Shown here: in pieces, positions 989 through 59,636 of the stretch
Layout of the letters: each line of letters starts with the position of its first letter
Position numbering within the stretch: position 1 is the first letter of the stretch
Source: Minisyncoccia bacterium
Lineage (GTDB): Bacteria > Patescibacteriota > Minisyncoccia > Phycocordibacterales > UBA918
DNA: 64,000 nucleotides
Assembly (NCBI GenBank): GCA_964229335.1
Contig: CAXRCZ010000007.1
Span: 59,275-123,274 of the forward strand
Reading direction: 5' to 3'
Made by a program: the position numbers and the translations under genes
Notes under the pieces: model-generated
Database searches by the model: none
Seen by the model: the letters and a program-made list of their open reading frames with translations, nothing else
What the model was told of the DNA's origin: nothing

Positions 989-1014
989 TACTCGTAAATT
1001 ATCAAACTTAAATA

Positions 1015-1587
1015 TTAGACACGAATAAACTCGTCAACTTCTGGGAGCGGCATAATTTCTTTACCATTCTTTACCTTACCTTCCTCAAACGGAAATACAC
1101 TTATACTTCCATCTAATTCTAGATAGGCATATTCGACCTCTCCAATATTTCTCACTCCATTCTTTCTTAGTTCGGATTCTAGTTCAGCTTCAGTAAAGTT
1201 TTCAGTTTCCAACGCATGCTGAATTATTTGCCCATTTTTTACTAACAAATTTGGCCTACTATTAATAAATTTTTCGAAAGGTGACCACTTGAGTTTTAAT
1301 CTCGAAGTACCAAACTGCAACGTAATCACTGTCATAATAATTAGTGCTGCATAAATTATTGCTACAGATGGATAAAACATTACATCTCCCACCGCTGAAC
1401 CGAGCGCTACAATTAGTAACATCTCAACTGGAGTCATTTGTTTACGCGCTTTTTTTCCTCCTGCTCTCAGAAACACTAAGGCAAAGATATAAATAACCAG
1501 AACTCTAAAAGTAATTTCTAACAAGAATACCCATTCACTTTCACCAAAAATTGTTTGTGTTAGATCAAATGTAACTACCGGATCCAT
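1015..1587 (-). CDS. DUF421 (YetF-like) membrane protein
   Basis: 190-aa ORF with N-terminal TM helices and a C-terminal soluble domain typical of DUF421. Twin of 6582-7154. Confidence 0.7.
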   Translation of the reverse strand: MDPVVTFDLTQTIFGESEWVFLLEITFRVLVIYIFALVFLRAGGKKARKQMTPVEMLLIVALGSAVGDVMFYPSVAIIYAALIIMTVITLQFGTSRLKLKWSPFEKFINSRPNLLVKNGQIIQHALETENFTEAELESELRKNGVRNIGEVEYAYLELDGSISVFPFEEGKVKNGKEIMPLPEVDEFIRV

Positions 1588-1629
1588 GAAATTTTCTAAT
1601 TAATACGTGTAACGATTACTACAATATGT

Positions 1630-2238
1630 ATGTATAGTATCTTATTTTTCTTTTTTTCGCTTACGATAGCTGCGTCTGGTTTTTTAAAATGGTATGGTTT
1701 CTTAATGGATTGGATCTATCAGTCATATTCAGATGTGCCACAAATACTGTTCTCAGTAATAGTATTTACTTCGATAGTAGTACTTTATACAAGAATCGTT
1801 GGTCTTCGAAGTTTTTCTAAAATGTCTAGCTTTGATTTTGCCATCACAGTAGCGTTTGGTTCTATACTAGCTTCTGTGGTAATCGCAAAAGAACCTAAGA
1901 TATTCCAAGCTGCAGTAGCTATGGGTGGTTTATATTTGTTTCAATACGTACTGTCATTTATAAAAGTGAGGAATAAATGGTTTGCTACCTTGATTGATAA
2001 TGAACCGATTTTACTAATGAATAATCAAGGTTTTTTAGAAGACAATTTAAAAAAAGCCCGAGTTACTAAAGATGAAGTCAGAGATAAACTACGCAAAGCT
2101 AACGTGCTTCAACTCTCAGAAGTAAGGGCTGTAGTTTTTGAAACTACTGGTGATATTTCTGTATTACACAGTACATCCGACAGAAAAATAGATAGTGAAA
2201 TTACAGCCAACGTAAGAGATAAACATTTAATTCAATAA
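1630..2238 (+). CDS. DUF421 (YetF-like) membrane protein, paralog
   Basis: 202-aa ORF with the same architecture. Twin of 5931-6539. Confidence 0.7.
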   Translation: MYSILFFFFSLTIAASGFLKWYGFLMDWIYQSYSDVPQILFSVIVFTSIVVLYTRIVGLRSFSKMSSFDFAITVAFGSILASVVIAKEPKIFQAAVAMGGLYLFQYVLSFIKVRNKWFATLIDNEPILLMNNQGFLEDNLKKARVTKDEVRDKLRKANVLQLSEVRAVVFETTGDISVLHSTSDRKIDSEITANVRDKHLIQ

Positions 2239-2272
2239 CTAGCCGTCTGGGACAATGTTGGAACTTTTTTAG

Positions 2273-2800
2273 CTAAGAAATCGGCTTAATTTCTACTCCA
2301 CTATCTTTATACTCCCGGTATTCTTCCTTGGTTTCTCTCGAATCTACTGACTTACAATAAAACACTTCGTCACCAAAAGAAGACGGTACATCCCACAGCT
2401 TATGTTTAATAACAGCTCCCCACATCCACTTAGAGAGAACGATGTCATCAGATTTCATTATTCCCCCATGAGTAATATTTTCTCCTCCGTCTTTATAGAA
2501 CACCAGATCTCCAGGTTCTGGATTATTTGTTGCTACAAGAATATTCTTACTAAATAGATGTTTTATAAATTCTTGCTGTACAGGATTGTTTCCTCCAAGG
2601 AACTCTGGATCTTGCTCAAGTCCAAAAGCGAATACGAAACAATTATAGTTTATTAAGTATGCTGGTGGTGGGGCTACTATTGTTAACTCCAAAGGAAGAC
2701 GAGATCGAATATATGCTTCAAATTCATCCGGTACCCACCACTTTCTTCCTTCTTCCTCTTCAATTAGTTCTGTGAGTTCCTCTCTGTCTTTTTTGTTCAT
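2273..2800 (-). CDS. Hypothetical protein, possible papain-like Cys/His hydrolase
   Basis: 175-aa ORF with NCFVFAFG and ITHGG motifs. Twin of 5369-5896. Function not recognised. Confidence 0.55.
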   Translation of the reverse strand: MNKKDREELTELIEEEEGRKWWVPDEFEAYIRSRLPLELTIVAPPPAYLINYNCFVFAFGLEQDPEFLGGNNPVQQEFIKHLFSKNILVATNNPEPGDLVFYKDGGENITHGGIMKSDDIVLSKWMWGAVIKHKLWDVPSSFGDEVFYCKSVDSRETKEEYREYKDSGVEIKPIS

Positions 2801-3101
2801 ATGAAGAGTATACCTTGATCAAGAAGTCGAACTAAATATAGCTGAAATATCGGTGCTAGCCGTCTGGGACAATGTTGGAACTTTTCTGGGGTTATGATAA
2901 CTTACTCACAGGAGGACACCATGCACGAACAATCAAGCTCTTACGCAATGTGTTAACAGATTCTCAACCATCCTCGGTTCAAGGACTCGGACGCTCATGA
3001 GCGTTCATCTCTCTACAATAAATTGTCAGGGATGACATTTTCTGAACTCGCTGAAGAGCGAAAGAAAATTGGTCTACTGACTTATGAAGATTAATTTGCG
3101 T

Positions 3102-3129
3102 CACCTCTTTAACAGGAGGTGGCTTTTTT
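3102..3129 (+). terminator. Rho-independent terminator-like hairpin (mirror copy at 5040-5067 on the minus strand)
   Basis: Stem cacctc / gaggtg with an 8-nt loop, followed by gctttttt. Confidence 0.5.
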
Positions 3130-3161
3130 ACGAGCTACCGGACAGGGACGATGTTGGAACT

Positions 3162-3641
3162 TTATTGGCCAGCCGCTTCTAGAGCAGCAAGTGCATATCG
3201 TTGAGTTTCTGGTCGCATTCTCTCATCTTTTTCTAACAAATCATCTAGGTCTACTCTGGTGCACCATCTGTATTCTGTATCCATACTGTCTTCTTCTTGT
3301 GGATTGATTTCTCTAGAATCAGACCGTGCTGCAAATACTAAAGAGGAGTGGTCGTGTACCTCGTTTATTTTATGACGATTCATAAACAATGGTGGGACAA
3401 GGTCTTTATTTGTTTCAGTATCTGTTTGAGTCCAATTTTTAGGACCAATCAAAGTAACTTTTAGACCTGATTCTTCCCAAGCTTCTCGTACCGCAGCTTC
3501 GTTTGCATCTTCGCCGGGATCAATATGCCCTCCTGGCGTACCCCAATAGTTGTACTTTTCATGCAACCTCAGTAGTACAGCATCTCCATTTACTATGAAG
3601 GTATCTACGCAGAGGTCTAGGTAGTAATTTATATGTGCCAT
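3162..3641 (-). CDS. NUDIX hydrolase
   Basis: Nudix box GGHIDPGEDANEAAVREAWEESGL. Twin of 4528-5007. Confidence 0.85.
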   Translation of the reverse strand: MAHINYYLDLCVDTFIVNGDAVLLRLHEKYNYWGTPGGHIDPGEDANEAAVREAWEESGLKVTLIGPKNWTQTDTETNKDLVPPLFMNRHKINEVHDHSSLVFAARSDSREINPQEEDSMDTEYRWCTRVDLDDLLEKDERMRPETQRYALAALEAAGQ

Positions 3642-3833
3642 ACATGAAAGTATAGCAAATTACTGGACAGGGACTCGGTCAGGAGTCGATTATTTTCATG
3701 AATGAAAATATATCGCTCACGACCCTGGCTCGAAACTCCAGTCCCCCAGACTGGTTTTCTCCGCCTTTCTCGTCCCAGTGCTCGGTATCCATAACGATAA
3801 ATTGCGATAGCAAATGCTATCGCAGTTTAATCG

Positions 3834-3907
3834 TGGCTACCGGACAGGGACTCGAACCCCGATCGCTTGGACCAAAACCAAGTGTCCTACCATTAGACGA
3901 TCCGGTA
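3834..3907 (-). tRNA. tRNA-Gln(TTG), mirror copy
   Basis: Exact reverse complement of 4262-4335. Confidence 0.9.
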
Positions 3908-4261
3908 AAATATTTCATTACCAACGATTTACTAACGGGAGGACGCGCAGTGTCCATACTGTCGAGCTAAGTGAGGGTCTAAAGAAAATATGTTTTCTTT
4001 AGACCGAACGTGCGCTGACAGCAAGCTTTGCTTACCATTAGACGATCCGGTAATTTTGTAAAATATAGGTACGTACTTTGGTACGTACCAAAGTACGTAC
4101 CTATATTTTACAAAATTACCGGATCGTCTAATGGTAAGCAAAGCTTGCTGTCAGCGCACGTTCGGTCTAAAGAAAACATATTTTCTTTAGACCCTCACTT
4201 AGCTCGACAGTATGGACACTGCGCGTCCTCCCGTTAGTAAATCGTTGGTAATGAAATATTT

Positions 4262-4335
4262 TACCGGATCGTCTAATGGTAGGACACTTGGTTTTGGTCC
4301 AAGCGATCGGGGTTCGAGTCCCTGTCCGGTAGCCA
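4262..4335 (+). tRNA. tRNA-Gln(TTG) with encoded CCA
   Basis: Acceptor taccgga/tccggta (U1-A72). Anticodon arm cttgg-ttTTGgt-ccaag. T arm cgggg-ttcgagt-ccctg. Discriminator g followed by cca. Confidence 0.9.
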
Positions 4336-4491
4336 CGATTAAACTGCGATAGCATTTGCTATCGCAATTTATCGTTATGGATACCGAGCACTGGGACGAG
4401 AAAGGCGGAGAAAACCAGTCTGGGGGACTGGAGTTTCGAGCCAGGGTCGTGAGCGATATATTTTCATTCATGAAAATAATCGACTCCTGAC

Positions 4492-4508
4492 CGAGTCCCT
4501 GTCCAGTA
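4492..4508 (+). repeat. R1: near-exact copy of the tRNA-Gln 3' end (mirror at 3661-3677)
   Basis: cgagtccctgtccAgta matches tRNA positions 4315-4331 cgagtccctgtccGgta at 16/17, 177 nt downstream. Confidence 0.85.
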
Positions 4509-4527
4509 ATTTGCTATACTTTCATGT

Positions 4528-5007
4528 ATGGCACATATAAATTACTACCTAGACCTCTGCGTAGATACCTTCATAGTAAATGGAGATGCTGTACTACTGA
4601 GGTTGCATGAAAAGTACAACTATTGGGGTACGCCAGGAGGGCATATTGATCCCGGCGAAGATGCAAACGAAGCTGCGGTACGAGAAGCTTGGGAAGAATC
4701 AGGTCTAAAAGTTACTTTGATTGGTCCTAAAAATTGGACTCAAACAGATACTGAAACAAATAAAGACCTTGTCCCACCATTGTTTATGAATCGTCATAAA
4801 ATAAACGAGGTACACGACCACTCCTCTTTAGTATTTGCAGCACGGTCTGATTCTAGAGAAATCAATCCACAAGAAGAAGACAGTATGGATACAGAATACA
4901 GATGGTGCACCAGAGTAGACCTAGATGATTTGTTAGAAAAAGATGAGAGAATGCGACCAGAAACTCAACGATATGCACTTGCTGCTCTAGAAGCGGCTGG
5001 CCAATAA
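4528..5007 (+). CDS. NUDIX hydrolase
   Basis: 159-aa ORF with a Nudix box. Confidence 0.85.
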   Translation: MAHINYYLDLCVDTFIVNGDAVLLRLHEKYNYWGTPGGHIDPGEDANEAAVREAWEESGLKVTLIGPKNWTQTDTETNKDLVPPLFMNRHKINEVHDHSSLVFAARSDSREINPQEEDSMDTEYRWCTRVDLDDLLEKDERMRPETQRYALAALEAAGQ

Positions 5008-5035
5008 AGTTCCAACATCGTCCCTGTCCGGTAGC
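5007..5035 (+). repeat. R2: att-like repeat aaagttccaacatcgtccctgtccggtagc (mirror at 3134-3162)
   Basis: The last 15 nt, tccctgtccggtagc, are identical to the tRNA-Gln 3' end. The first 14 nt are shared with R3 and R4. Confidence 0.85.
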
Positions 5036-5284
5036 TCGTAAAAAAGCCACCTCCTGTTAAAGAGGTGACGCAAATTAATCTTCATAAGTCAGTAGACCAA
5101 TTTTCTTTCGCTCTTCAGCGAGTTCAGAAAATGTCATCCCTGACAATTTATTGTAGAGAGATGAACGCTCATGAGCGTCCGAGTCCTTGAACCGAGGATG
5201 GTTGAGAATCTGTTAACACATTGCGTAAGAGCTTGATTGTTCGTGCATGGTGTCCTCCTGTGAGTAAGTTATCATAACCCCAGA

Positions 5285-5314
5285 AAAGTTCCAACATTGT
5301 CCCAGACGGCTAGC
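5285..5314 (+). repeat. R3: att-like repeat aaagttccaacattgtcccagacggctagc (mirror at 2855-2884)
   Basis: Direct repeat of R4, and shares 11/15 of its 3' part with R2. Confidence 0.85.
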
Positions 5315-5368
5315 ACCGATATTTCAGCTATATTTAGTTCGACTTCTTGATCAAGGTATACTCTTCAT

Positions 5369-5896
5369 ATGAACAAAAAAGACAGAGAGGAACTCACAGA
5401 ACTAATTGAAGAGGAAGAAGGAAGAAAGTGGTGGGTACCGGATGAATTTGAAGCATATATTCGATCTCGTCTTCCTTTGGAGTTAACAATAGTAGCCCCA
5501 CCACCAGCATACTTAATAAACTATAATTGTTTCGTATTCGCTTTTGGACTTGAGCAAGATCCAGAGTTCCTTGGAGGAAACAATCCTGTACAGCAAGAAT
5601 TTATAAAACATCTATTTAGTAAGAATATTCTTGTAGCAACAAATAATCCAGAACCTGGAGATCTGGTGTTCTATAAAGACGGAGGAGAAAATATTACTCA
5701 TGGGGGAATAATGAAATCTGATGACATCGTTCTCTCTAAGTGGATGTGGGGAGCTGTTATTAAACATAAGCTGTGGGATGTACCGTCTTCTTTTGGTGAC
5801 GAAGTGTTTTATTGTAAGTCAGTAGATTCGAGAGAAACCAAGGAAGAATACCGGGAGTATAAAGATAGTGGAGTAGAAATTAAGCCGATTTCTTAG
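5369..5896 (+). CDS. Hypothetical protein, possible papain-like Cys/His hydrolase
   Basis: 175-aa ORF flanked by R3 and R4. Confidence 0.55.
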   Translation: MNKKDREELTELIEEEEGRKWWVPDEFEAYIRSRLPLELTIVAPPPAYLINYNCFVFAFGLEQDPEFLGGNNPVQQEFIKHLFSKNILVATNNPEPGDLVFYKDGGENITHGGIMKSDDIVLSKWMWGAVIKHKLWDVPSSFGDEVFYCKSVDSRETKEEYREYKDSGVEIKPIS

Positions 5897-5901
5897 CTAA
5901 A

Positions 5902-5930
5902 AAAGTTCCAACATTGTCCCAGACGGCTAG
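5902..5930 (+). repeat. R4: att-like repeat aaagttccaacattgtcccagacggctag (mirror at 2239-2267)
   Basis: Identical to R3 over 29 nt. Confidence 0.85.
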
Positions 5931-6539
5931 TTATTGAATTAAATGTTTATCTCTTACGTTGGCTGTAATTTCACTATCTATTTTTCTGTCGGATGTACTG
6001 TGTAATACAGAAATATCACCAGTAGTTTCAAAAACTACAGCCCTTACTTCTGAGAGTTGAAGCACGTTAGCTTTGCGTAGTTTATCTCTGACTTCATCTT
6101 TAGTAACTCGGGCTTTTTTTAAATTGTCTTCTAAAAAACCTTGATTATTCATTAGTAAAATCGGTTCATTATCAATCAAGGTAGCAAACCATTTATTCCT
6201 CACTTTTATAAATGACAGTACGTATTGAAACAAATATAAACCACCCATAGCTACTGCAGCTTGGAATATCTTAGGTTCTTTTGCGATTACCACAGAAGCT
6301 AGTATAGAACCAAACGCTACTGTGATGGCAAAATCAAAGCTAGACATTTTAGAAAAACTTCGAAGACCAACGATTCTTGTATAAAGTACTACTATCGAAG
6401 TAAATACTATTACTGAGAACAGTATTTGTGGCACATCTGAATATGACTGATAGATCCAATCCATTAAGAAACCATACCATTTTAAAAAACCAGACGCAGC
6501 TATCGTAAGCGAAAAAAAGAAAAATAAGATACTATACAT
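5931..6539 (-). CDS. DUF421 (YetF-like) membrane protein
   Basis: 202-aa ORF. Confidence 0.7.
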   Translation of the reverse strand: MYSILFFFFSLTIAASGFLKWYGFLMDWIYQSYSDVPQILFSVIVFTSIVVLYTRIVGLRSFSKMSSFDFAITVAFGSILASVVIAKEPKIFQAAVAMGGLYLFQYVLSFIKVRNKWFATLIDNEPILLMNNQGFLEDNLKKARVTKDEVRDKLRKANVLQLSEVRAVVFETTGDISVLHSTSDRKIDSEITANVRDKHLIQ

Positions 6540-6581
6540 ACATATTGTAGTAATCGTTACACGTATTAATTAGAAAATTTC

Positions 6582-7154
6582 ATGGATCCGGTAGTTACAT
6601 TTGATCTAACACAAACAATTTTTGGTGAAAGTGAATGGGTATTCTTGTTAGAAATTACTTTTAGAGTTCTGGTTATTTATATCTTTGCCTTAGTGTTTCT
6701 GAGAGCAGGAGGAAAAAAAGCGCGTAAACAAATGACTCCAGTTGAGATGTTACTAATTGTAGCGCTCGGTTCAGCGGTGGGAGATGTAATGTTTTATCCA
6801 TCTGTAGCAATAATTTATGCAGCACTAATTATTATGACAGTGATTACGTTGCAGTTTGGTACTTCGAGATTAAAACTCAAGTGGTCACCTTTCGAAAAAT
6901 TTATTAATAGTAGGCCAAATTTGTTAGTAAAAAATGGGCAAATAATTCAGCATGCGTTGGAAACTGAAAACTTTACTGAAGCTGAACTAGAATCCGAACT
7001 AAGAAAGAATGGAGTGAGAAATATTGGAGAGGTCGAATATGCCTATCTAGAATTAGATGGAAGTATAAGTGTATTTCCGTTTGAGGAAGGTAAGGTAAAG
7101 AATGGTAAAGAAATTATGCCGCTCCCAGAAGTTGACGAGTTTATTCGTGTCTAA
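6582..7154 (+). CDS. DUF421 (YetF-like) membrane protein
   Basis: 190-aa ORF. Confidence 0.7.
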   Translation: MDPVVTFDLTQTIFGESEWVFLLEITFRVLVIYIFALVFLRAGGKKARKQMTPVEMLLIVALGSAVGDVMFYPSVAIIYAALIIMTVITLQFGTSRLKLKWSPFEKFINSRPNLLVKNGQIIQHALETENFTEAELESELRKNGVRNIGEVEYAYLELDGSISVFPFEEGKVKNGKEIMPLPEVDEFIRV

Positions 7155-7180
7155 TATTTAAGTTTGATAATTTACGAGTA

Positions 7181-8311
7181 ATGTCTACAGCACTTCCGCG
7201 TTACGAATACAGTCGATTAATAATACAGCGACGACTACAAGAACTAACTAGTCTAGAAGCTCCATTTGGCTTGACGACTCGCTACGCCGTTAAAGCCAAT
7301 CCACATCCAGAAATAATAAAACTCATTGATACTGCAGGTGTTGAGTTTGATGCCAGTTCAAGTTATGAAGCAGATGAGTTATTAGAAATGGGTATCGAGG
7401 GTAATAAGATTTCGCTATCTTCACAGCAGTCAACTCCTAATCTTGCTGAATTACTTGAGCAAGGAGTGCTCTATGTGGCCACCTCGATGCGACAACTGAG
7501 AGATTTTATTGCCGCCGCCAATCATCCTGATACTGTTGGGATACGGATTAATATTGATATGGGGGTGGGGCATAACAAGCGCACCAGTACCGGGGGAGCA
7601 ACCTCAGCGTTTGGACTTTGGTACGAATATATTCCCGAAGCTCTAGCACTAGCCAAAGAAAATGATGTGATCATTGATCGCCTACATATCCATGTTGGGT
7701 CAGGTTCAGATCCCAAAGTGTGGGGAGAGGTGATGGATCGGTCGCTTTCGATTGCCACGCAATTACCCGATGTCATCGCGCTCGATATCGGAGGTGGTTT
7801 CAAAGTGCATCGATATGATACTGAGAAAGAGGCTGATATGTCGGTAATAATGGAGCTCTTTTCTAGCAAGTTAGAGAACTTTGCAGCTGAAACTGGCAGA
7901 GAGTTACGGCTTGAAATTGAACCTGGTACGTACCTGATTGCGCATGCCGGCACCTTGGTAGCAACTGTCGACGATATTGTCGATACTGGAGCCGACGGCT
8001 TCACTTTTCTGCGAATCAATACTGGTATGAATGATTTTTTGCGTACAGCTATGTACGGCGCTCAACATAAAATCGAGGTGATAAATAATGATGATGAAAC
8101 TAAAGAATACATTGTGGTAGGACACAACTGCGAGTCGGGTGATATTTTCACCCCTACTCCCGGTGACCCAGAAGAAATCGAACCGAGAATGTTAAATAAA
8201 GCAGAGATTGGCGACGAGATACGTATTTATGATGTTGGTGCGTATGGCGCAAGTATGCGAGCCAAGGGCTACAACTCGTTTCCAGACGCTGTTGAGGTGA
8301 TAGTCGATTAG
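7181..8311 (+). CDS. PLP-dependent group IV decarboxylase (LysA / Orn / Arg / carboxynorspermidine decarboxylase family)
   Basis: Motifs YAVKANP (PLP lysine), HIHVGSGS, DIGGGF, EPGTYL, GHNCESGD, GAYGASM. Confidence 0.8.
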   Translation: MSTALPRYEYSRLIIQRRLQELTSLEAPFGLTTRYAVKANPHPEIIKLIDTAGVEFDASSSYEADELLEMGIEGNKISLSSQQSTPNLAELLEQGVLYVATSMRQLRDFIAAANHPDTVGIRINIDMGVGHNKRTSTGGATSAFGLWYEYIPEALALAKENDVIIDRLHIHVGSGSDPKVWGEVMDRSLSIATQLPDVIALDIGGGFKVHRYDTEKEADMSVIMELFSSKLENFAAETGRELRLEIEPGTYLIAHAGTLVATVDDIVDTGADGFTFLRINTGMNDFLRTAMYGAQHKIEVINNDDETKEYIVVGHNCESGDIFTPTPGDPEEIEPRMLNKAEIGDEIRIYDVGAYGASMRAKGYNSFPDAVEVIVD

Positions 8312-20372: not shown

Positions 20373-22157
20373 ATGAAAAATATCAGAAATTTCAGCATTA
20401 TTGCTCACATAGATCACGGAAAAAGTACTCTCGCAGATAGAATGCTAGAGGCGACAAAAACGGTAGAAGACCGAAAAATGAAAGCCCAGGTTTTGGATTC
20501 AATGGAGCTGGAGCGTGAGCGTGGCATTACTATCAAAATGCAGCCCGTTTCTATGCAGTATCAAAATGATTCGGGAGAATTTGAATTGAATCTAATTGAT
20601 ACACCCGGACACATCGATTTTTCCTATGAAGTTTCTCGAGCACTAAAAGCAGTCGAGGGTGTTTTACTGTTGGTAGACAGTACCCAAGGTATACAAGCCC
20701 AAACTCTGACCACGCTGCAAATGGCCAAGGAGCTTGGATTAGTTATCATCCCAGTTCTCACTAAGACCGACATGCCACACGCTCGCCCTGATGAAGTAGG
20801 GGAAGAAGTGACAAAATTGTTGGATTGTAATAAAGAGGACATACTACTAGTATCGGGAAAGACTGGTGAAGGTGTGCCAGAGCTACTCGAGGCTATATGC
20901 GCAACTATTCCAGCCCCACGGGAACCGCTAATGTCGGAATATAGAGGATTAATTTTTGATTTTCAATACTCCAACCATCGCGGCATCATCGTGTTTATGC
21001 GAGTGTTTGATGGTTCGGTCAAAAAAGGCGATGTACTGCAATTTGCTGCCAGTAAACGATCTTTCACGGCTTTGGATGTGGGTGTGGTCAAGCCCGAAGA
21101 AGCTCCACAATCAGAACTGACAGCCGGACAAATCGGCTATATAGTCACCGGTATTAAAGAGCCCGGTGTGGCAAGTGTGGGGGACACCTTGATTCCTAAT
21201 AAATCAGAAGTAGCACCTTTGTCTGGTCATCAGCTAGCAAGACCAGTGGTCTGGGCGTCTATTTTTCCAGAAAACCAAGATGAGTTTACAAGTTTGAGAC
21301 AAGCTCTAGAGCGCCTTAAATTATCCGACTCATCGCTTTCTTTTGAGGAAGAGTCGTCGGGTATATTAGGTCGAGGTTTCAGATGTGGATTCTTGGGGAT
21401 GCTTCACCTGGAGATAATTACCGAGCGCTTGAAACGCGAGTTTGCGATTGAGATTATTATTACCGCACCATCTATTTCCTACGAGGTGACTTGGCCTGAT
21501 GGGCAAACCGAAGAAATCTATGCTGCTACTCGGTTTCCTGAACATGGAGAAAAAGCCAGTATTAAAGAACCCTGGGTACTGGGCCAGATACTGATGCCAA
21601 GTGATTATATGGGTAACATTCTTACTTTGTTATATGAGCACGAAGGGTCCGTGATAGATACTGAGGTATTTAGTGATGGCCGCACCCTCTTGTCGATTGA
21701 AATGCCACTTCGCGAACTTATGAGAGGATTCTTTGATAGATTGAAGAATGCTAGCAGCGGATACGCCTCTTTTTCTTATGAGATTGCAGAAATACGGCCA
21801 GCCAGCGTTACTAAGTTGGACGTGTTGGTAGCAGAAGAAATAGTACCAGCGTTCTCTCGAGTAGTCGGCATGTCTCGAGCTGATACTGAAGCTAAAGCGA
21901 TTGTCGACAAGTTGTACAAAGCTCTGCCGCAACAGCAGTTTGTGACCAAAATTCAGGCTAAGGTCATGGGTAAAATTATTGCCACTAAAAAGCTCTCAGC
22001 CCTACGAAAGGACGTGACAGCCGGTCTCTACGGTGGTGATATTACTCGAAAAATGAAGCTTCGAGAAAAGCAAAAGAAAGGTAAACAAAAAGCTCTAGCC
22101 CGTGGTAAAGTCCACATCCCACCATCTGTGTTTATGGGTATGTTGAAGGATGATTAG
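20373..22157 (+). CDS. lepA: Elongation factor 4 (LepA)
   Basis: IRNFSIIAHIDHGKSTLADR, DTPGHIDF, and the LepA C-terminal domain. Confidence 0.92.
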   Translation: MKNIRNFSIIAHIDHGKSTLADRMLEATKTVEDRKMKAQVLDSMELERERGITIKMQPVSMQYQNDSGEFELNLIDTPGHIDFSYEVSRALKAVEGVLLLVDSTQGIQAQTLTTLQMAKELGLVIIPVLTKTDMPHARPDEVGEEVTKLLDCNKEDILLVSGKTGEGVPELLEAICATIPAPREPLMSEYRGLIFDFQYSNHRGIIVFMRVFDGSVKKGDVLQFAASKRSFTALDVGVVKPEEAPQSELTAGQIGYIVTGIKEPGVASVGDTLIPNKSEVAPLSGHQLARPVVWASIFPENQDEFTSLRQALERLKLSDSSLSFEEESSGILGRGFRCGFLGMLHLEIITERLKREFAIEIIITAPSISYEVTWPDGQTEEIYAATRFPEHGEKASIKEPWVLGQILMPSDYMGNILTLLYEHEGSVIDTEVFSDGRTLLSIEMPLRELMRGFFDRLKNASSGYASFSYEIAEIRPASVTKLDVLVAEEIVPAFSRVVGMSRADTEAKAIVDKLYKALPQQQFVTKIQAKVMGKIIATKKLSALRKDVTAGLYGGDITRKMKLREKQKKGKQKALARGKVHIPPSVFMGMLKDD

Positions 22158-22279: not shown

Positions 22280-22382
22280 ACGCTCTATTCTACCTGAAGA
22301 TACTAATAATTTTAAGGGTTGATGGTAGTATAGTAGTGGTGTGTCTTTCCACACAGATTTATGTCTGCGAAAGATTATATTG

Positions 22383-22438
22383 GCCGCTCGTTACAGCCAT
22401 AATCTCCCTTGATAGGTCGATTCTGGCTAAACGCCGGC
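22383..22438 (+). repeat. 56-nt three-stem hairpin motif, copy 1 (candidate structured RNA leader)
   Basis: gccg-ct-cgt-tac-agcca-[24 nt with GTCGATTC]-tggct-aa-acg-c-cggc. Lies 43 nt upstream of the ftsB-like start. Confidence 0.6.
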
Positions 22439-22481
22439 ATAAATTCGCAATATTCGTGTTATCACACTCATTTGCTCATTC

Positions 22482-23284: not shown

Positions 23285-23701
23285 TTAGTTTGGGCTATAT
23301 TCGCGCCAAGGTACGACAGCTCCGTTGAGAGCAATATAGACACCTTTAGGAAGGTGCCGGATCGACCCTACCGCCATACCGAAGTTGAAGTCGACATCGG
23401 AACCAGGCTCACCTTCAGGCACACGACATCCAACAAGGACGATGGTACGAGCCCTGATTTCAGCAAGATGAGCAGCAGCTCGTTGTATTTTGTCGATATC
23501 GTGAATGACGATGTGGTTCGAGAAGTTCGCCTTGATGATGTAGTGTTCTGCAGTATCATAGCTGGCTTGCTTTCCGGTACAGGCTGGACAGAACATCACA
23601 GCCTCATCTTTAATGTGAGCTCGATCCAAAAGTGACTGGAGCGAGCGGCAGAAATTCTTGTATTCTCCATAAGGCATAATGCCAATCATTTCAAGACCCA
23701 T
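23285..23701 (-). CDS. Hypothetical protein, high-GC orphan
   Basis: ggagg RBS 5 nt before the ATG at 23701. 138 aa, no motif recognised. Terminator hairpin at 23232-23280. Confidence 0.6.
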   Translation of the reverse strand: MGLEMIGIMPYGEYKNFCRSLQSLLDRAHIKDEAVMFCPACTGKQASYDTAEHYIIKANFSNHIVIHDIDKIQRAAAHLAEIRARTIVLVGCRVPEGEPGSDVDFNFGMAVGSIRHLPKGVYIALNGAVVPWREYSPN

Positions 23702-23806
23702 CTGCGCCTCCAATTTTTAGGGTGCTATAAACTATCTAAATAATACACTAAAATAACGAACTGTCAAGTAATATTGCTAAATCACATTAGTTTCTTATCT
23801 AAAAGA

Positions 23807-23819
23807 AGGAGCAGACTCG
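23807..23819 (-). repeat. Copy of the tRNA-Phe 3' part (cgagtctgcTcct), distal boundary of the tRNA-Phe island
   Basis: 12/13 identity to cgagtctgcCcct in tRNA-Phe, in the same orientation. Abuts ttagtaactcgtgac. Confidence 0.6.
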
Positions 23820-24277
23820 GTCACGAGTTACTAAGTATATTTGTTCGTGATGCTCAAAATATTGCTTAGGGACATTGACTCGTCCTGGCGGTCACAAGGC
23901 TGAATTGAGTATCAAGATACTCAATTCAGCAAGTGCCGCGGGACACGCCTCGCTCGTTTTCAGCTCCAGGTAATGAGCTGAAAACATCGTTCCGGCGTTC
24001 GAGTCTGCACGCAAGCAAAGCAGTTTGCTTGCTCCCTGAGCAGTCAAAACCCCGCCAAGGGCGGGGTTTCTTTGTGCAGATGCACGGGACAATTCTCGAA
24101 CTTTTGATCTGAGAGTCCTTCACTCTATCAAGCAACTCGAACCACTCCAAAACGCAAACGACGACTCTGTTGAGCCGCCGATTGCTGATGTCGCGTAAGA
24201 GCGACTCTCTCAGCGCGACCGTACATAAAAACCCTCGATGCACGAATGCATCGAGGGTCTGCGGTAGCTAGCAATAG

Positions 24278-24772
24278 CTACTTGGGATTACGAACGAACA
24301 TCCAAGAAACGTTGCTGTCCCACCTGCGGTCGGGGTGACCGTTACGAGCGTAGATCCAGCGCCCGAAGTCGTCGCATACCACGCGGAACACGTTACGATC
24401 GCCTCCCGAGTCCACGATGGTTTCCATTGCCACAAGCGACCATTCGCCACGGGGCAACAGATCGTGGTCATGTAGCCAAAGCTGCGGGGCCGCTTCGGCA
24501 GGGCAGAGCGAGAGGTTGTGACTTTCGGCAGCAGCGTAAATCTGCGCTGTGGTCGCACCGTCTTCCAGTCCCAGCTCTTTGACCAACACCCGAACCAGGT
24601 CGAGCGGAGTTTCCGTATCCTCGAAGGTAGCCCGTTCGAGAATATCGTCACCCCAGTCGCCGATCCTGATGCCAGCATCTTCGAGGCGTTTGCGAGCTTC
24701 TTGAGCGCTTCCGAGATTCCCGACCGTGACTGTTTTCCAGGTCGGGAAGGTCGATTGTGTTGCAGTCTTCAT
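24278..24772 (-). CDS. Hypothetical protein, high-GC cargo of the tRNA-Phe island
   Basis: gggag RBS before the ATG. 164 aa. A spot count of one 60-nt line gave about 60% GC, against about 42% in a lepA line. Confidence 0.65.
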   Translation of the reverse strand: MKTATQSTFPTWKTVTVGNLGSAQEARKRLEDAGIRIGDWGDDILERATFEDTETPLDLVRVLVKELGLEDGATTAQIYAAAESHNLSLCPAEAAPQLWLHDHDLLPRGEWSLVAMETIVDSGGDRNVFRVVCDDFGRWIYARNGHPDRRWDSNVSWMFVRNPK

Positions 24773-24909
24773 TGAACATCTCCCGAGCCAGCTTCCGCCA
24801 GCTCATTTTGAGTGGCGGGTGGTTAACCCAGGAAAAACCTACCTGAATTCAATCACATATCGTGAATCTGTCAACTTGTGCCGTGACTCAGGAGAGCTAT
24901 CTTATTCTG

Positions 24910-25059
24910 ATGACTCACGACGAATGGCTGGAAGAATACATCGATATTTGCGCCACAATCTTCATACGACTGCAGCGAGAAGGACGACTGGAAGAGGTTC
25001 TGTCGACATATGAGAAGACTCGAACTGAGAAAGTCTTAGAAACCAACGATATTTCATGA
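24910..25059 (+). CDS. Small hypothetical protein
   Basis: aggagag RBS upstream of the ATG at 24910. 49 aa, followed by a terminator at 25104-25129. Confidence 0.3.
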   Translation: MTHDEWLEEYIDICATIFIRLQREGRLEEVLSTYEKTRTEKVLETNDIS

Positions 25060-25156
25060 CTTGAGAATCTGACTAAGATTTCTCGAAAGCTTGGAATACA
25101 AAAATACCGCTCAGGTGAGCGGTATTTTTGTGAGGCAGAAAAGCCGTCTCTTTTTG

Positions 25157-25230
25157 TGCTCAGGGGCAGACTCGAACTGCCGACACCTGGTTCTTCAGAC
25201 CAGTGCTCTAACCAACTGAGCTACCTGAGC
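25157..25230 (-). tRNA. tRNA-Phe(GAA)
   Basis: Acceptor gctcagg/cctgagc. Anticodon loop ctGAAga. T arm ggcag-ttcgagt-ctgcc. Confidence 0.92.
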
Positions 25231-25311
25231 ATTAGGTATTTATTTTACTCCACAACTAAGGAGTGCTCGCTATTGTACCGATTTTTACAATTAATTCAAT
25301 CTACTTATACG

Positions 25312-25590
25312 CTAAAACTCCAATTGATTGATATCAATACCGAATACCTCAAAAGTGTCCTGAAATGATTCGTAGTAAGGTGCTAAGAGATAGTAATACA
25401 GCAAGAAAGGTAATCCTAATACTATAGCTACCCATAGGATACGTAACCAGAATCCCCACACCATACTCCGATGGATTTTGTTTAGTAACTGATTGTTTTT
25501 AGATAAGAGCTCTTTGTTCTCAGTTATCATTTCCTCCAATTCTTCAGTGTGCCGACACTCTACTTCGGGTATTTTATTTTTATCCGACAT
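25312..25590 (-). CDS. Hypothetical membrane protein
   Basis: 92 aa, with a coiled N-terminus and 2 TM helices. Confidence 0.5.
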   Translation of the reverse strand: MSDKNKIPEVECRHTEELEEMITENKELLSKNNQLLNKIHRSMVWGFWLRILWVAIVLGLPFLLYYYLLAPYYESFQDTFEVFGIDINQLEF

Positions 25591-25655
25591 AGTTACCAGT
25601 ATAGCAAAAGAGTAGTTGATTATAGTGACTTTGTGCTACTCTAGGAAAATTAATT

Positions 25656-25730
25656 GTCCTTATAGTTTAATGGATAAAACGGCTCCCTCCTAAGGAGCAA
25701 ATCTAGGTTCGATTCCTAGTGAGGACACCA
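25656..25730 (+). tRNA. tRNA-Arg(CCT) with encoded CCA
   Basis: Acceptor gtcctta/tgaggac. Anticodon arm gctcc-ctCCTaa-ggagc. T arm ctagg-ttcgatt-cctag. Confidence 0.9.
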
Positions 25731-25893
25731 ATCAGCCGCCCTGAACACGAACGCGTTCAGGGCGTTGCTGTTGGTAGTACACTACTAGGAATCGAAAGAC
25801 GGAGCTGGTACACAAGACGAGCGTAGCGAGGGCTTGTCAGCGAGTCCGGGGAGGAAGTTCTTAACGAACGAAGTGAGTTTAGAAACTTGACCC

Positions 25894-25912
25894 CGATTCC
25901 TAGTAAGGATAC
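25894..25912 (+). repeat. Copy of the tRNA-Arg 3' end
   Basis: cgattcctagtAaggaTac vs tRNA 25710-25728 cgattcctagtGaggaCac (17/19), 184 nt downstream. Confidence 0.85.
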
Positions 25913-25915
25913 TGG

Positions 25916-34559: not shown

Positions 34560-35741
34560 TTGTCTGCTCAAATAAATGAAAATGTTCCGCTGCCGATTCA
34601 GTGGCTCACCAACCACCTTCCGTGGATGATTACGTGGGGTCCTGCAGGATTCATTCTGGCAAACATCGGCGTAGTCGTGCTCGGCTGGTCGCACTTGTAC
34701 CACGACATTGTTCATGGGGTGCTGAATTTCGGTCTGACGATGGGGTCAGTCACTATATCGGGTCAACCGGATGTGCACTTTTTCGTCAATGACTTTCTCA
34801 TGATGTTCTTCTTCCTCGTCGTGGGGACAGAAGTCAGACGTGAGCTCAGTCAGTTTCCGAGTGTGTCGAGTGCATCAGTGCCGTTCATCGCAGCTGCTGG
34901 TGGCGTCTGCTTGCCAGCAATTCTGTCGGCGGTGATCGCTCCCGACTACGCCTCGACTATCTTCGGCATTCCGATGGCGACTGATATTGCGTTTGCGCTT
35001 CTCTTCGCCGAGGTGTTGAAAGTCGACAAGACGCAACGAACTATCCTGCTGCTCTTGGCGGTGGTGGATGATGTTTTCGGCATTCTCGTCATCGCGGTGT
35101 TCTACACCGACCAGATCGACCTGACCTTTTTGCTGTACGGCATACTGGTTTCGGTCGTTCTGCTCTGGCTCGGCTTCGGACCGAAAACTCCCTACAAAGG
35201 CATTTACCTCATTGGGGCACTACTCCTCTGGTATCTGTTTTATAAGGCGGGTATTCATCCGACCTTGGCGGGTGTCGTCGCTGGGGTAGCGGCTCCGTTT
35301 GATGAATCTGGAGAATCAACTTCAGAGCGCATCGAACGGGTGTTTGCAACCTGGTTTCTGCCAACCATCCTCGGCTTGTTTGCGTTCGTTAATCTCGGTA
35401 TAAACGTACGCGAGTTGGTCGAGTCAGGCATCCAAGCTGACGTGGCCAGCGGTGTTGCAATCGGTCTTTTTGTCGGCAAGATTGCAGGCGTGGCTGGTGC
35501 ACTCTGGCTCATCCAACGTCGCAACCCAGACGCAATCCCGTTCGGCAAACTGGCTATGGCCAGACTTGGAGCTTTGGCTGGGATTGGACTAACAGTCGCT
35601 CTGTTCATCAACAATCTGGCTTTCAACGATGAAAAATTGATTGCCAGTGCCAAGGTGGGTATTTTGACTGGGAGTTTCCTAGCAGTGCTAGCAGCCTGGG
35701 TCTTGACGATTGTTATCAATAGGCAAGAAGCGAAAGTGTGA
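34560..35741 (+). CDS. nhaA: Na+/H+ antiporter NhaA (high-GC)
   Basis: FFLVVGTEVRREL, ATDIAFAL and VVDDVFGILVIAVFY motifs. TTG start. One 60-nt line spot-counted at about 60% GC. Confidence 0.85.
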   Translation: MSAQINENVPLPIQWLTNHLPWMITWGPAGFILANIGVVVLGWSHLYHDIVHGVLNFGLTMGSVTISGQPDVHFFVNDFLMMFFFLVVGTEVRRELSQFPSVSSASVPFIAAAGGVCLPAILSAVIAPDYASTIFGIPMATDIAFALLFAEVLKVDKTQRTILLLLAVVDDVFGILVIAVFYTDQIDLTFLLYGILVSVVLLWLGFGPKTPYKGIYLIGALLLWYLFYKAGIHPTLAGVVAGVAAPFDESGESTSERIERVFATWFLPTILGLFAFVNLGINVRELVESGIQADVASGVAIGLFVGKIAGVAGALWLIQRRNPDAIPFGKLAMARLGALAGIGLTVALFINNLAFNDEKLIASAKVGILTGSFLAVLAAWVLTIVINRQEAKV

Positions 35742-39016: not shown

Positions 39017-39150
39017 CTGGTACCGGTCACAAGTTACTAAGTGTTTTCACTAACTTCGTTAGTTGCGAGCACTAAGTACTCGCGACCCCAGCTCGCTTCT
39101 CGTCGCTGCGGGATAGAGCCGCTCCTCACATCGCTGCGCTTGGCGGTACC
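39017..39150 (-). repeat. Solo copy of the tRNA-linked element family, between ftsZ and trxB, bounded by ggtacc
   Basis: The plus strand carries gtcacaagttactaa (39026-39040), cttcgtt, ctaagtactcgcgaccccagctcgct (39072-39097) and gagccgctcctc. These blocks occur in the same order as at the tRNA loci. Confidence 0.65.
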
Positions 39151-39151
39151 C

Positions 39152-40381
39152 TTATTTCAGCTTACTTCGTCGCAGAAATGCGGGTACCGCCCCCCAATCG
39201 TCCTCTTCATCAGAGTCTTCACTCGCGTCGACTGGTTTTGGTTCACGTTTGGGAATTTCTGGACGTGAAGACTGATTAGTGTTTGCTGCTGGAGCTGGTG
39301 TTTCCTCAGCTTTCTTTGGTAGAGAGTTAAATATCTTTCCTTTGGTTGGTGTAATCTCTATATCTTCATCATCCTCTTGAATCGGAGCTCGGCGAGAGAT
39401 ATGCATGCCACCGGTGTTGAGAGTTTCGTCAGGGAAACCAGTAGCGATAACGGTGACTTTGATTTCATTCTTCTTCAACTTCTCGTCACGAATTGCTCCG
39501 AAGATAACTTTTGCTTGAGAATCAATTGATTCAGTGATTACCCGTGCCGCGTCTTGGATTTCGAGCATACCAAGATCATCTCCACCAGCGATGGCGAATA
39601 GAACACCTTTCGCTCCAGTAATCGAAACTTCCAATAGGGGAGAGTTAATAGCGTCTCGAGAAGCTTCCTCAGCACGCTTGTCGCCAGAAGAAATACCTAC
39701 ACCCATCAAGGCTGAGCCGGCATTTTCCATTACGCTGCGGATGTCAGCGAAGTCGACATTGATGATACCTGGCATGGTAATCAGGTCAGAGATACCTTCT
39801 ACCGCTTGACGTAGAACGTTGTCACACTGCTCAAACGCGTTTTTAACAGTGGTCTCCTTGTCTACAATTGCTAGCAAGCGATCGTTAGGGATGGTGATGA
39901 GTGCATCAACCTCTTTCTTCAGTTCTTCGATTCCTTGCAAAGCAAGACGCATACGCTCTTGGCCTTCAAATAAGAATGGTTTAGTCACTACACCAACAGT
40001 GAGAGCACCACTTTCACGAGCGATTTTAGCTACGACGGGAGCAGATCCGGTACCGGTACCTCCACCCATTCCTCCAGTGATGAAGATCATATCTGATCCT
40101 TTGATGGCGTTGGCGATTTCTTCTCGAGTTTCTTCAGCAGCGCGGCGACCCATGTCAGGGTTACCACCAGCTCCTAGACCGCGGGTGAGGTTCTTACCGA
40201 TGTGAATTTTTTTCTTAGCTAGCGAGTGATGTAAGTCTTGGGCGTCACTGTTTACTGCAATAAATTCCACTCCTTTAACTTTTGAGTTCACCATGTGGTT
40301 CACGGCGTTCTTTCCAGAGCCGCCGACACCAACGACTCTTATACGTGCAAATGACTCTACGTCTGATTTAATTTGTTCCAT
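39152..40381 (-). CDS. ftsZ: Cell division protein FtsZ
   Basis: [11 protein letters not shown] tubulin signature and NTD...GxxGxG start. Confidence 0.95.
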
Positions 40382-44229: not shown

Positions 44230-44323
44230 GAGAAGATGATTTTTATTATTATACGAAATTTTAGAAGGTAAAACAAATTAAGCAAAATCACGAGCAACAA
44301 AGTTGCGACTAAATTTTGCTTAT

Positions 44324-44379
44324 GCCGGCGCTTAGCCAGAATCGACCTCTCAAGGGATATTTTGGCTGTAGCGAGCGGC
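44324..44379 (-). repeat. 56-nt three-stem hairpin motif, copy 2
   Basis: Minus strand reads gccg-ct-cgc-tac-agcca-[24 nt with GTCGATTC]-tggct-aa-gcg-c-cggc. Lies 94 nt upstream of the lepB ATG. Confidence 0.6.
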
Positions 44380-44423
44380 AAAGGAAGTCTGTTCCGTTGC
44401 CGACAGTTAAAGCAAGTACTTAT

Positions 44424-56861: not shown

Positions 56862-56877
56862 GATTAAATTCCTTTCA

Positions 56878-59144: not shown

Positions 59145-59340
59145 CAACGTTAAGAAAAACTGTGCCTGCGCACAGTTTTTTAGTTGTCCGAGGCGGAGCT
59201 ATGTTTTTTCTCTTAACCTTGAGAAAAAGCCAGCGAGCCGGGGTCGCGAGTACTTAGCAAAATTTTTGCGAAGCGAATATTTTGGTTAGTAACTGGTGAC
59301 GTCAACGTAAAGAAAAACTGCCCAACGGCAGTTTTTCTAT
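59145..59340 (+). repeat. tRNA-linked element copy downstream of tRNA-Lys, bracketed by a duplicated flank-plus-terminator
   Basis: caacgttaagaaaaactg + hairpin at 59145-59182 recurs as caacgtaaagaaaaactg + hairpin at 59304-59340. The interior has cgaggcggag, agcgagccggggtcgcgagtacttag (59232-59257), gcgaag and ttagtaactggtgac (59286-59300). Confidence 0.7.
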
Positions 59341-59474: not shown

Positions 59475-59636
59475 TTCCCACAGTTACTAATTCGTTACAC
59501 TCATAAGTACTGCTAGACGCGGCTCAACCGTTTCAATTTCTAGGAATGGAAATTGAACCATGTCTCCGCCGTTCGATTCCAGAAAGATTGTGCGCAGGCA
59601 CAATCTACCCATGCCTACGAAAACTTAGTTTTCGTG

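Follow-up and report, generated by a model that had tools for sequence, protein, structure and literature searches.

Background

Accretion of integrative elements at the 3' ends of tRNA genes is known from the CIMEs (cis-mobilizable elements) of Streptococcus thermophilus, ICESt1/3, and CTX-phi integrates at dif as a single strand with a hairpin stem that mimics the target duplex. The Patescibacteria, or candidate phyla radiation (CPR), have tiny genomes whose mobile elements are poorly charted. In this study, a GC-rich island of 1.35 kb behind the tRNA-Phe gene of a Minisyncoccia bacterium (GenBank assembly GCA_964229335.1, contig CAXRCZ010000007.1, positions 59,275 to 123,274) was analysed in a window of 64,000 nucleotides, by which we mean the whole stretch examined and whose positions are used throughout. 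We favour, with moderate confidence, the reading that this island arose from two unrelated insertions stacked at the tRNA-Phe 3' end, namely a small gene-less structured element and a cargo block carrying two open reading frames (ORFs).

The tRNA 3' ends are busy landing pads, and at least two systems use them in CPR genomes. The first is a family of large serine recombinases (LSRs), with genes lying antisense over the tRNA, and the second is a very abundant small structured element unmatched in Rfam or in the searchable literature. In the serine integrase of a Listeria innocua prophage (LI), the motif bound by the zinc-ribbon domain was proposed to be shifted 5 bp centreward in attB relative to attP, and the proposal was tested by mutagenesis (PMC3783163). 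Diversity-generating retroelements (DGRs), to which the larger cargo gene is related, are common in CPR (PMC8144416).

The tRNA-Phe locus

The island is read here in the direction of the tRNA, that is, along the minus strand, and its features are as follows, each with the evidence in brackets.

25157-25230, minus strand: tRNA-Phe(GAA), the attachment target (ARAGORN; Rfam tRNA, 71 bits)
25150-25159, minus strand: GCACAAAAAG, final 3 nt of the tRNA and the adjoining trailer, one copy (tRNA side) of the short repeat bounding the cargo (sequence, repeat search)
25098-25131: hairpin with a U-rich arm directly after the tRNA (sequence reading)
24862-25059, plus strand: 65-aa ORF, divergent partner of the 164-aa gene (homologue in L002)
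24278-24772, minus strand: 164-aa gene, short form of a DGR variable-protein family (35 homologues, alignment)
24291-24411, minus strand: fossil variable region, homologous to a DGR variable/template repeat (comparison with L212)
24232-24258: hairpin with 11-bp stem and 4-nt loop, right after the stop codon of the 164-aa gene (sequence)
about 24102-24231, minus strand: about 130 nt of non-coding DNA, including a T-loop-like GTTCGAG at 24136-24142 (sequence)
24078-24101, minus strand: far end of the cargo, a T-loop-like GTTCGAG (24095-24101) plus 17-nt spacer (resembles far ends of LSR elements)
24070-24077, minus strand: GCACAAAG, displaced copy of tRNA end plus trailer, at the junction of cargo and small element (repeat search)
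24046-24070: terminator-like hairpin CCCCGCC/GGCGGGG of the small element (sequence, fold)
23997-24042, plus strand: inverted copy of the tRNA-Phe 3' end, 21/21 nt (sequence)
24011-24032: hairpin GCAAGCAAAGCAGTTTGCTTGC, with the CTGC loop typical of the family, splitting the inverted copy (sequence)
23835-23996, minus strand: diverged, interrupted structured core (covariance-model matches, alignment with other copies)
23820-23834, minus strand: family terminus TTAGTAACTCGTGAC (exact motif match)
23807-23819, minus strand: AGGAGCAGACTCG, 12/13 direct copy of the tRNA-Phe T-loop/acceptor segment (copies tRNA positions 25162-25174)
23285-23713, minus strand: 142-aa ORF outside the repeat, asparaginase-like (pairwise BLASTP)

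Much of this outline had been recognised in an earlier description made from the letters alone (the original prediction). ARAGORN and Rfam agree on tRNA-Phe on the minus strand (25230->25157), and the roughly 1.3 kb behind it are indeed richer in GC, at 0.51-0.61 across 23900-24800 against a window average of 0.44. The predicted cluster of hairpins is reflected in strong folding of the non-coding stretch 23800-24085 (z = -9.1 against shuffles), and the family terminus does abut a 12/13 copy of the T-loop/acceptor segment, which is the displaced original 3' part of the tRNA, decayed past 13 nt. The terminator hairpin was half right: a hairpin lies at 25098-25131 in the sequence, and it is not among the calls of a consensus terminator scan; it is probably a replacement terminator supplied by the cargo element. 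A chance layout is unlikely, because the layout of motif plus 3' repeat of the neighbouring tRNA recurs after four other tRNAs of the window and at dozens of loci in metagenomes, where the repeats are perfect and 17-31 nt long.

That the island is an insertion at the tRNA-Phe 3' end was borne out by comparison with 50 related genomes drawn from the relatives of LepA, in which it is absent. Gene order in these relatives is lepA, ftsB, grx, tRNA-Arg(CCT) reversed, o92, tRNA-Phe and hsp20 reversed, and the 164-aa, 65-aa and 142-aa ORFs were not found at the locus in any of the 50. The spacing on the 3' side of both tRNA-Arg and tRNA-Phe varies among them from about 50 bp to 7.5 kb, thus both sites are insertion hot spots. 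A tyrosine integrase was not found next to tRNA-Phe, where the sole ORFs (65 aa and 164 aa) have no integrase domain.

What had been overlooked is that the island also contains the tRNA-Phe 3' end in inverted orientation and in full (21/21 nt), composed of GTTCGAGTCTGC (23997-24008, complement of the T-arm) and CCCTGAGCA (24034-24042, complement of the acceptor 3' strand). Everything from 24077 downwards thus forms a complete small element with its own inverted copy, so the cargo has this resident element on one side and the tRNA on the other. The original prediction had instead taken the whole island for one cargo-carrying relative of elements of about 160 nt. In that alternative, the 1.35 kb would have arrived in a single integration at the tRNA-Phe T-loop, with the 12/13 repeat as sole scar; the block is indeed bounded by the tRNA on one side and by the family terminus plus T-loop/acceptor copy on the other, and in other family members tRNA and terminus are 1-2.4 kb apart, with small unannotated ORFs in the interval. 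We nevertheless consider it unlikely, since the cargo is followed by an internal junction, at which a displaced tRNA end with trailer, the terminator and the whole inverted copy are arranged just as in gene-less copies, since it possesses an LSR-type end of its own, and since the same cargo stands behind tRNA-Leu without any core. Two stacked insertions account better for these observations.

The far end of the cargo

LSRs are encoded by big insertions in the relatives L019 and L055 and at the metagenome locus L129, and in all three the 3' end of the gene overlaps the tRNA in antisense. The family comprises 2472 homologues at E <= 1e-30, and the same antisense overlap with a tRNA (Tyr, Lys or Leu) was seen in 4/4 further contexts that were examined. 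The core of the small element was not found at these further loci, thus the LSR and small-element systems are separate. At L129, the LSR element is flanked by tRNA-Tyr and by a small element, a position like that of the cargo in the window. This arrangement suggested the LSR as the small element's own recombinase, an idea rejected because six further LSR loci have no core and because the LSR element of L129 has its own end, upstream of a complete small element.

The ends of these elements share a common spacing. GTTCGAG (or GTTCGTG/GTTCGTT) stands 23-24 nt before the repeat of tRNA end plus trailer in L218, L219, L129, L019 and L055, whereas in the tRNAs themselves the T-loop GTTCGA stands 18-19 nt before the same point. 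In the window the distance is 24 nt in the element arm against 18 nt in the tRNA, and the offset of the element arm amounts to +4 to +6 in the five LSR-encoding elements and in L002, where by sequence reading GTTCGAG-N17-ACACAGAAA faces the tRNA-Leu end ACACACAAA, with the motif 24 nt before an 8/9 repeat. By analogy with LI, we infer that the zinc-ribbon domain would here bind GTTCGAG, and 24078-24101 is read as the putative phage-side (attP-type) arm of an LSR attachment site. The T-loop would then appear to be the recognition motif, shifted by about 5 bp in the element arm, and compact tRNA-targeting integrases could follow from it. As in serine recombination, the repeat is short and the target restored: tRNA-Phe is intact, and the copy GCACAAAAAG (25150-59) has its counterpart GCACAAAG at 24070-77. 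Within the 1.35-kb island there are 5 occurrences of GTTCGAG, where about 0.16 would be expected.

On this anatomy, the cargo block putatively represents an LSR-type element minus its recombinase, with autonomous relatives that carry the LSR at L129, L019, L055 and L218-L223. The pair of a 65/69-aa and a 164-aa ORF is also present in an insert of about 1.09 kb behind tRNA-Leu(GAG) in L002-L006, which speaks for a non-autonomous unit that recurs and against a single deletion event; behind tRNA-Leu in other genomes the cargo stands without the core.

Several further features were seen in the LSR elements. The LSR ORF overlaps or wholly contains its antisense target tRNA (Tyr, Leu, Lys, Arg) in L218 (8378-9991), L223 (4936-6558), L221, L222, L019 and L055. 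The LSR genes of L129 (4068-5823) and L055 (18249-20069) are bracketed by perfect inverted repeats of 138-150 nt, which hold the last 50 codons or so, and flipping would leave the ORF intact. Beside the LSR, the cargo of these two loci is bracketed by a second inverted-repeat pair of about 250 nt (L129 546-792/3825-4073; L055 13309-13550/18014-18255).

The genes of the cargo

The 164-aa ORF had been called an orphan, a label that does not hold. It has 35 homologues, all from uncultured metagenome contigs, with identities of 59-70% to P0002-P0015 and 41-43% to P0025/P0026; the only named distant matches are Bacillaceae 'helicase' proteins (E 1e-4 to 1e-6). Most homologues are 195-212 aa long and have about 45 additional N-terminal residues compared with the short form of the window. 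In L212, L213, L214, L216 and L217, bAvd and a reverse transcriptase follow directly downstream of the homologue, and in the repeat pairs of L212-L217 the last 130 nt or so of the DGR-linked homologue are repeated 330-470 nt downstream, differing at template adenines. The template/variable pair of L212 shows mismatches at 13/35 template-A sites and at 0/94 other sites, and such a repeat pair with differences confined to adenines is the signature of a DGR.

The window copy retains a homologue of this region at 24291-24411, with 73.6% identity to the L212 template repeat. Against this heterologous template, 16/33 A sites and 17/90 other sites differ (Fisher p = 0.0015), with ordinary divergence overlaid. 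A second copy of the last 300 nt of the gene, that is, a template repeat, was not found in the whole window by self-BLAST, and tBLASTn with the reverse transcriptase and Avd of L214/L212 gave no match in the window. The 164-aa gene is thus best read, from these comparisons, as a stranded DGR target with a frozen variable region.

A working DGR target, diversified in trans by a template repeat and reverse transcriptase from another part of the genome, with the island as an adaptive surface or ligand-binding module, would be the alternative. DGR reverse transcriptase and Avd do occur in the related genomes L048 and L057, the ORF is intact with a confidently predicted fold, and its changes favour template-A positions; yet template repeat, Avd and reverse transcriptase were not found in the 64 kb, 19% of the non-A positions differ from the nearest known template too, and the short form with its 65-aa partner occurs without DGR parts at every locus seen (L002-L006, also L007 and L009). 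This alternative therefore seems distinctly improbable to us, and the stranded target is preferred. DGR cassettes accordingly fragment and travel, as the stranded variable-protein gene shows.

The AlphaFold2 model of the 164-aa protein reaches a pLDDT of 93. Its matches to C-type lectins are weak and not significant (TM 0.30-0.36, E > 0.1), no significant match was obtained in a PDB profile search or by Foldseek against PDB and BFVD, and neither the 164-aa nor the 65-aa ORF belongs to a family in Pfam, PHROGs, PADLOC or NCBIfam. As the small second gene, the original prediction had offered a possible 49-aa ORF, for which no support emerged; the conserved small partner is the 65-aa ORF (24862-25059, plus strand), with 44% identity over 43 aa (E 6e-14) to a 69-aa ORF at the same position in L002. 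A relation of the 65-aa ORF to the small protein of the LSR elements was considered and rejected, as there is no similarity.

DGR genes were also observed in other settings. In L007 (7205-8630), paralogous variable-protein genes (160 and 209 aa) stand behind tRNA-Gly and are followed by UPF0102; since UPF0102 follows Avd and reverse transcriptase in L212, loss of the DGR machinery is suggested in L007. In the Kaiserbacteria-labelled genomes L048 (3457-4824) and L057 (2376-2810), DGR reverse transcriptase and Avd lie a few kb upstream of lepA.

On account of its base composition, the DNA of the cargo had been suggested, speculatively, to stem from a high-GC donor, for instance an actinobacterial host if the bacterium were an epibiotic Saccharibacterium. 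The composition itself is striking, since the 164-aa ORF has a GC of 0.58 and a third-codon-position GC (GC3) of 0.65 in a genome of 0.44, and lepA, ftsB and grx have a GC3 of 0.31-0.41. However, members of the variable-protein gene family have a GC of 0.55-0.65 and a GC3 of 0.62-0.86 in hosts of 0.44-0.58 GC, and in L212 the gene (GC 0.62) stands beside its own reverse transcriptase of GC 0.43, thus high GC goes with this gene family whatever the host and does not point to a high-GC donor. Actinobacterial homologues are absent among the matches of the 164-aa protein, and the genome groups with Paceibacteria- or Parcubacteria-labelled genomes: LepA (20373-22157) shares 73-84% identity with its counterparts in genomes that for the most part carry the labels Nomurabacteria, Paceibacteria, Kaiserbacteria or Parcubacteria, some being labelled Saccharibacteria. 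Judged by these relatives, the host appears to be Paceibacteria-like and not clearly Saccharibacteria. Recent transfer from a high-GC donor is thus hardly credible, and the stranded DGR gene explains one kind of 'GC-rich orphan' in CPR without host-to-symbiont transfer.

The family of small structured elements

The resident element at tRNA-Phe is one member of a family of structured repeats, apparently undescribed, of which Patescibacteria metagenomes contain at least 130 copies; literature searches on its terminus motif, and on serine recombinases and tRNAs in CPR/Parcubacteria, returned nothing relevant. A pattern of its conserved end matches at least 120 metagenome stretches, and a phage origin was rejected because no viral contig matches it. 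Among the matches listed, 84 of 133 motif copies have a tRNA on the same strand within 450 nt upstream and the opposite arrangement occurs in 1; the tRNAs concerned are of nearly all types. Many copies have a perfect 17-31-nt repeat of the tRNA 3' part after the motif, starting from C56 of the T-loop, and others, mostly at tRNA-Glu, -Lys and -Arg, repeat only the last few nucleotides plus trailer.

In the direction of the tRNA, a typical copy consists of the tRNA, trailer plus terminator hairpin, inverted copy, core and direct repeat, and the inverted copy of trailer plus tRNA 3' part is often split by a small CTGC-loop hairpin. Inverted target copies of at least 8 nt are present in 59/70 family members compared with 0/70 shuffled controls, and L195 shows the inverted copy to be the exact complement of the 3' strand, not a copy of the tRNA 5' strand. 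A tRNA-primed retroelement was rejected as its origin, because the copy matches the genomic trailer and not CCA. A fixed target-site duplication was rejected as well, since the repeats range over 2-31 nt.

Alignment of 65 copies, analysed with RNAalifold and pair counts, shows a core of about 110 nt. Helix P1 (3 bp) encloses a hairpin of variable sequence, P2, and has covarying pairs GC52/AU12 and CG28/GC22/AU10/UA3, with two additional covarying closing pairs around P2. P3 is a long imperfect hairpin, GTCGAGAGTACTTAG ... CTTAGTAACTCGTGAC, with a variable tip; it ends in TTAGTAACTCGTGAC and has one covarying pair (GC46/AU11/GU5) plus an invariant G-U. In the core helices 98.9% of the alignment cells pair, and the covariation score is 0.258 against 0.093 in shuffled alignments (0/500) and at most 0.056 with partners slid. 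The G-U pairs indicate that the tRNA-sense strand is the folding strand. Gathering and permissive scans of the island and two clean copies against Rfam 15 brought only tRNAs to threshold, the rest being at chance level.

A covariance model built from the 65-copy alignment and run on the window gave matches behind 5 of 9 distinct tRNAs and behind ftsZ:

3678-3775: core behind tRNA-Gln
25788-25893: core behind tRNA-Arg
59182-59300: core behind tRNA-Lys
59476-59580: core behind tRNA-Cys
23820-23914 (E 0.035) and 23944-24006 (E 0.5): core behind tRNA-Phe, as two weak halves
39026-39150: sixth core, at the 3' end of ftsZ

Each of the five behind tRNAs has a repeat specific to its own tRNA. The terminus motif TTAGTAACTNGTGAC has three sites in the window, at 23820-23834 (minus strand), 39026 and 59286. 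The terminus also includes CTTAGTAAC (e.g. 59286-59300), which resembles in 7/9 positions the zinc-ribbon-domain motif TTTAGTATC of LI (PMC3783163); this may be a coincidence.

At ftsZ (39152-40381), a copy of the small element lies inside the 3' end of the gene (39026-39200). It re-encodes the C-terminal ...VPAFLRR, and the displaced copy reads ...VPAF-stop. Flanks resembling the ftsZ end (CGGTNCCNGCNTT) follow the motif in L099, L147 (twice), L198 and L204.

The structured core is a candidate for a new RNA or for a single-strand recombination module, and an RNA function is possible. It is quite unlikely, to our judgement, that the core is simply a host RNA gene or a processing signal of tRNA transcription units, immobile and merely adjoined by the island. 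The covarying helices with an invariant G-U on the tRNA-sense strand, the fixed orientation to tRNAs (84:1 among the matches listed) and the presence behind 5/9 tRNAs of the window would suit such a role. Against it, the core is patchy at orthologous tRNA-Phe, -Arg and -Val genes of related species, tandem copies are found in L179, L045 and L093, direct target repeats typical of insertion are present, the copy at ftsZ re-encodes the C-terminal peptide, and an intrinsic terminator separates tRNA from core. The patchy and tandem pattern fits insertion and loss better than a fixed host feature.

Rearrangements were also noted around these elements. The block tRNA-Arg(CCT)-o92-tRNA-Phe, with the elements behind both tRNAs (about 23807-25915), is inverted compared with most relatives that have both tRNAs. 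Each core keeps the repeat of its own tRNA, so the inversion breakpoints lie outside the elements, and recombination between the two cores was rejected as the cause since the own-tRNA copies are not swapped. Smaller inversions of single tRNAs were seen in L029, L038, L041, L045 and L049.

Proposed order of events at tRNA-Phe

The preferred history of the island would run as follows. The older layer (23807-24077), a small gene-less element, would have been resident behind tRNA-Phe when a younger element of 1.07 kb (24078-25149) entered between it and the tRNA, most likely by LSR recombination near the last nucleotides of the tRNA. Its arrival would have restored the tRNA end, supplied a new terminator and left the short repeat GCACAAA(AA)G. 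As the younger layer has no recombinase, it would be non-autonomous or decayed, and any present-day mobility would depend on an LSR acting in trans.

Some observations weigh against this history. Only 7 nt of the short repeat bounding the cargo are identical (about 12/13 if a 2-nt gap is allowed), an inverted GTTCGAG is not obvious in the tRNA-side arm, and a further T-loop-like GTTCGAG, GGTTCGAGTTGC at 24136-24142 (minus strand), is unaccounted for and may be the remnant of a third layer, so that more than two layers would be present. No LSR homologue was found in the 64-kb window, thus the argument for LSR dependence is drawn solely from site anatomy. The island core matches the covariance model poorly (E 0.035 and 0.5, with an extra hairpin between the two partial matches) compared with 29-79 bits for the other copies in the window, and it is recognised mainly via its exact terminus and the flanking tRNA copies. 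For the stranded DGR gene, it is possible that a matching template and reverse transcriptase lie elsewhere in the 126-kb contig or genome.

How the small elements might move

Site-specific recombination with an element-borne target end fits both the variable repeat length and the restored tRNA or FtsZ 3' end. We tentatively suggest, as a possibility on the doubtful side, that core and target copies define a new class of mobile element lacking a recombinase, which would integrate as a folded single strand of DNA or of reverse-transcribed RNA. The hairpin stem of the folded strand would reproduce the duplex of the target's 3' end, which would direct it to the 3' end of ftsZ and to the T-loops or ends of tRNAs. 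Mobilisation would come from an enzyme of the host or one acting in trans; or else the core RNA would guide the reaction through its target-complementary arm. One strand exchange by such a strand would leave a target copy, the interior, an inverted copy, a structured spacer and a second target copy in this order, and this mechanism would thus account for the inverted target copy. The small-element family, together with the T-loop-mimic logic of the sites, is the part of these results most worth further study.

Neighbouring genes and other features of the window

Beyond the repeat lies the 142-aa ORF, which together with the island had been taken for a sign of tandem acquisitions. The locus is indeed stacked, but this second ORF is not the orphan it was taken for: a word-indexed search had returned only itself, and pairwise BLASTP, which overturned its status as a true ORFan, showed 38% identity over 69 aa (E 1e-14) to asparaginase-domain proteins of 149/163 aa in L218/L219, with a Pfam asparaginase match just under the cut-off. 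In L218/L219 these genes fall inside the span bounded by the end repeats of the LSR element. The HGTDT motif, which presumably holds the catalytic threonines of asparaginase, reads HDIDK in the window protein, which is thus probably inactive. A promoter-like site lies at 23740-23767 (match 11/12). The 142-aa ORF is either a separate, older acquisition or a lineage-specific gene.

Positions 1-8168 of the window form a perfect palindrome (arms 1-4084 and 4085-8168, 100% complementary, spacer 0), so that tRNA-Gln with its small element is duplicated in mirror image. The palindrome probably reflects a fold-back artefact of the assembly where the contig ends, and may alternatively be a real hairpin-type end. 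Two other GC-rich patches, 55509-56984 and 34560-35741, may be further acquired genes; one of the two is a 491-aa ORF (GC 0.54, GC3 0.61) with no Pfam match and the other an NhaA antiporter gene (GC 0.525). An inverted repeat of 63 nt (22380-22442 / 44320-44382) is 90% complementary over arms 21.9 kb apart.

Comparison with known systems

The cargo resembles LSR prophages and elements (A118/LI, Bxb1, phiC31) in that the recombinase gene of its relatives adjoins the attachment site (L129, L218-L223), in that there is only a short identity at the crossover, and in that the element arm has a recognition-like motif about 5 bp farther from the junction than the host arm (PMC3783163). It differs in its target, the extreme 3' end of a tRNA, in the recombinase ORF running antisense into or across that tRNA, and in the window element having no recombinase at all.

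As in DGR systems (Mtd, TvpA, CPR targets; PMC8144416, PMC5006420), homologues of the 164-aa protein have a C-terminal variable region of about 130 nt, with an adenine-specific template, Avd and reverse transcriptase immediately downstream. The window copy, unlike them, has lost or never had template, Avd, reverse transcriptase and the N-terminal 45 residues or so.

With CIMEs the locus shares elements that are bounded by attachment sites and have no integrase genes, and a tandem stacking at one tRNA end in which newcomers push older elements downstream. CIMEs, however, involve tyrosine integrases and many kilobases, whereas the units here measure 0.17-1.1 kb and would depend on a serine recombinase.

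The small elements are, like MITEs (miniature inverted-repeat transposable elements), REP/BIME (repetitive extragenic palindromes and bacterial interspersed mosaic elements) and IS200/605-derived PATEs (palindrome-associated transposable elements), short, gene-less, hairpin-rich, multi-copy and intergenic. Unlike such repeats, they have neither terminal inverted repeats of their own nor a target duplication of fixed length: the core ends, AAAGNCG... and ...CTCGTGAC, are unrelated, and the 2-31 nt repeats are copies of gene 3' ends, which keep the target gene intact. Their strict orientation relative to the target is a further difference.

Finally, the order of parts in the small element is as left by single-strand integration of the kind seen with the CTX-phi attP hairpin (XerCD) and integron attC, and as in those systems the G-T pairs favour one strand. 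In contrast to them, no link to Xer/dif or IntI was found for the small elements, which are directed at the 3' ends of tRNA genes and of ftsZ; CTX-phi and attC serve here only as a working analogy.

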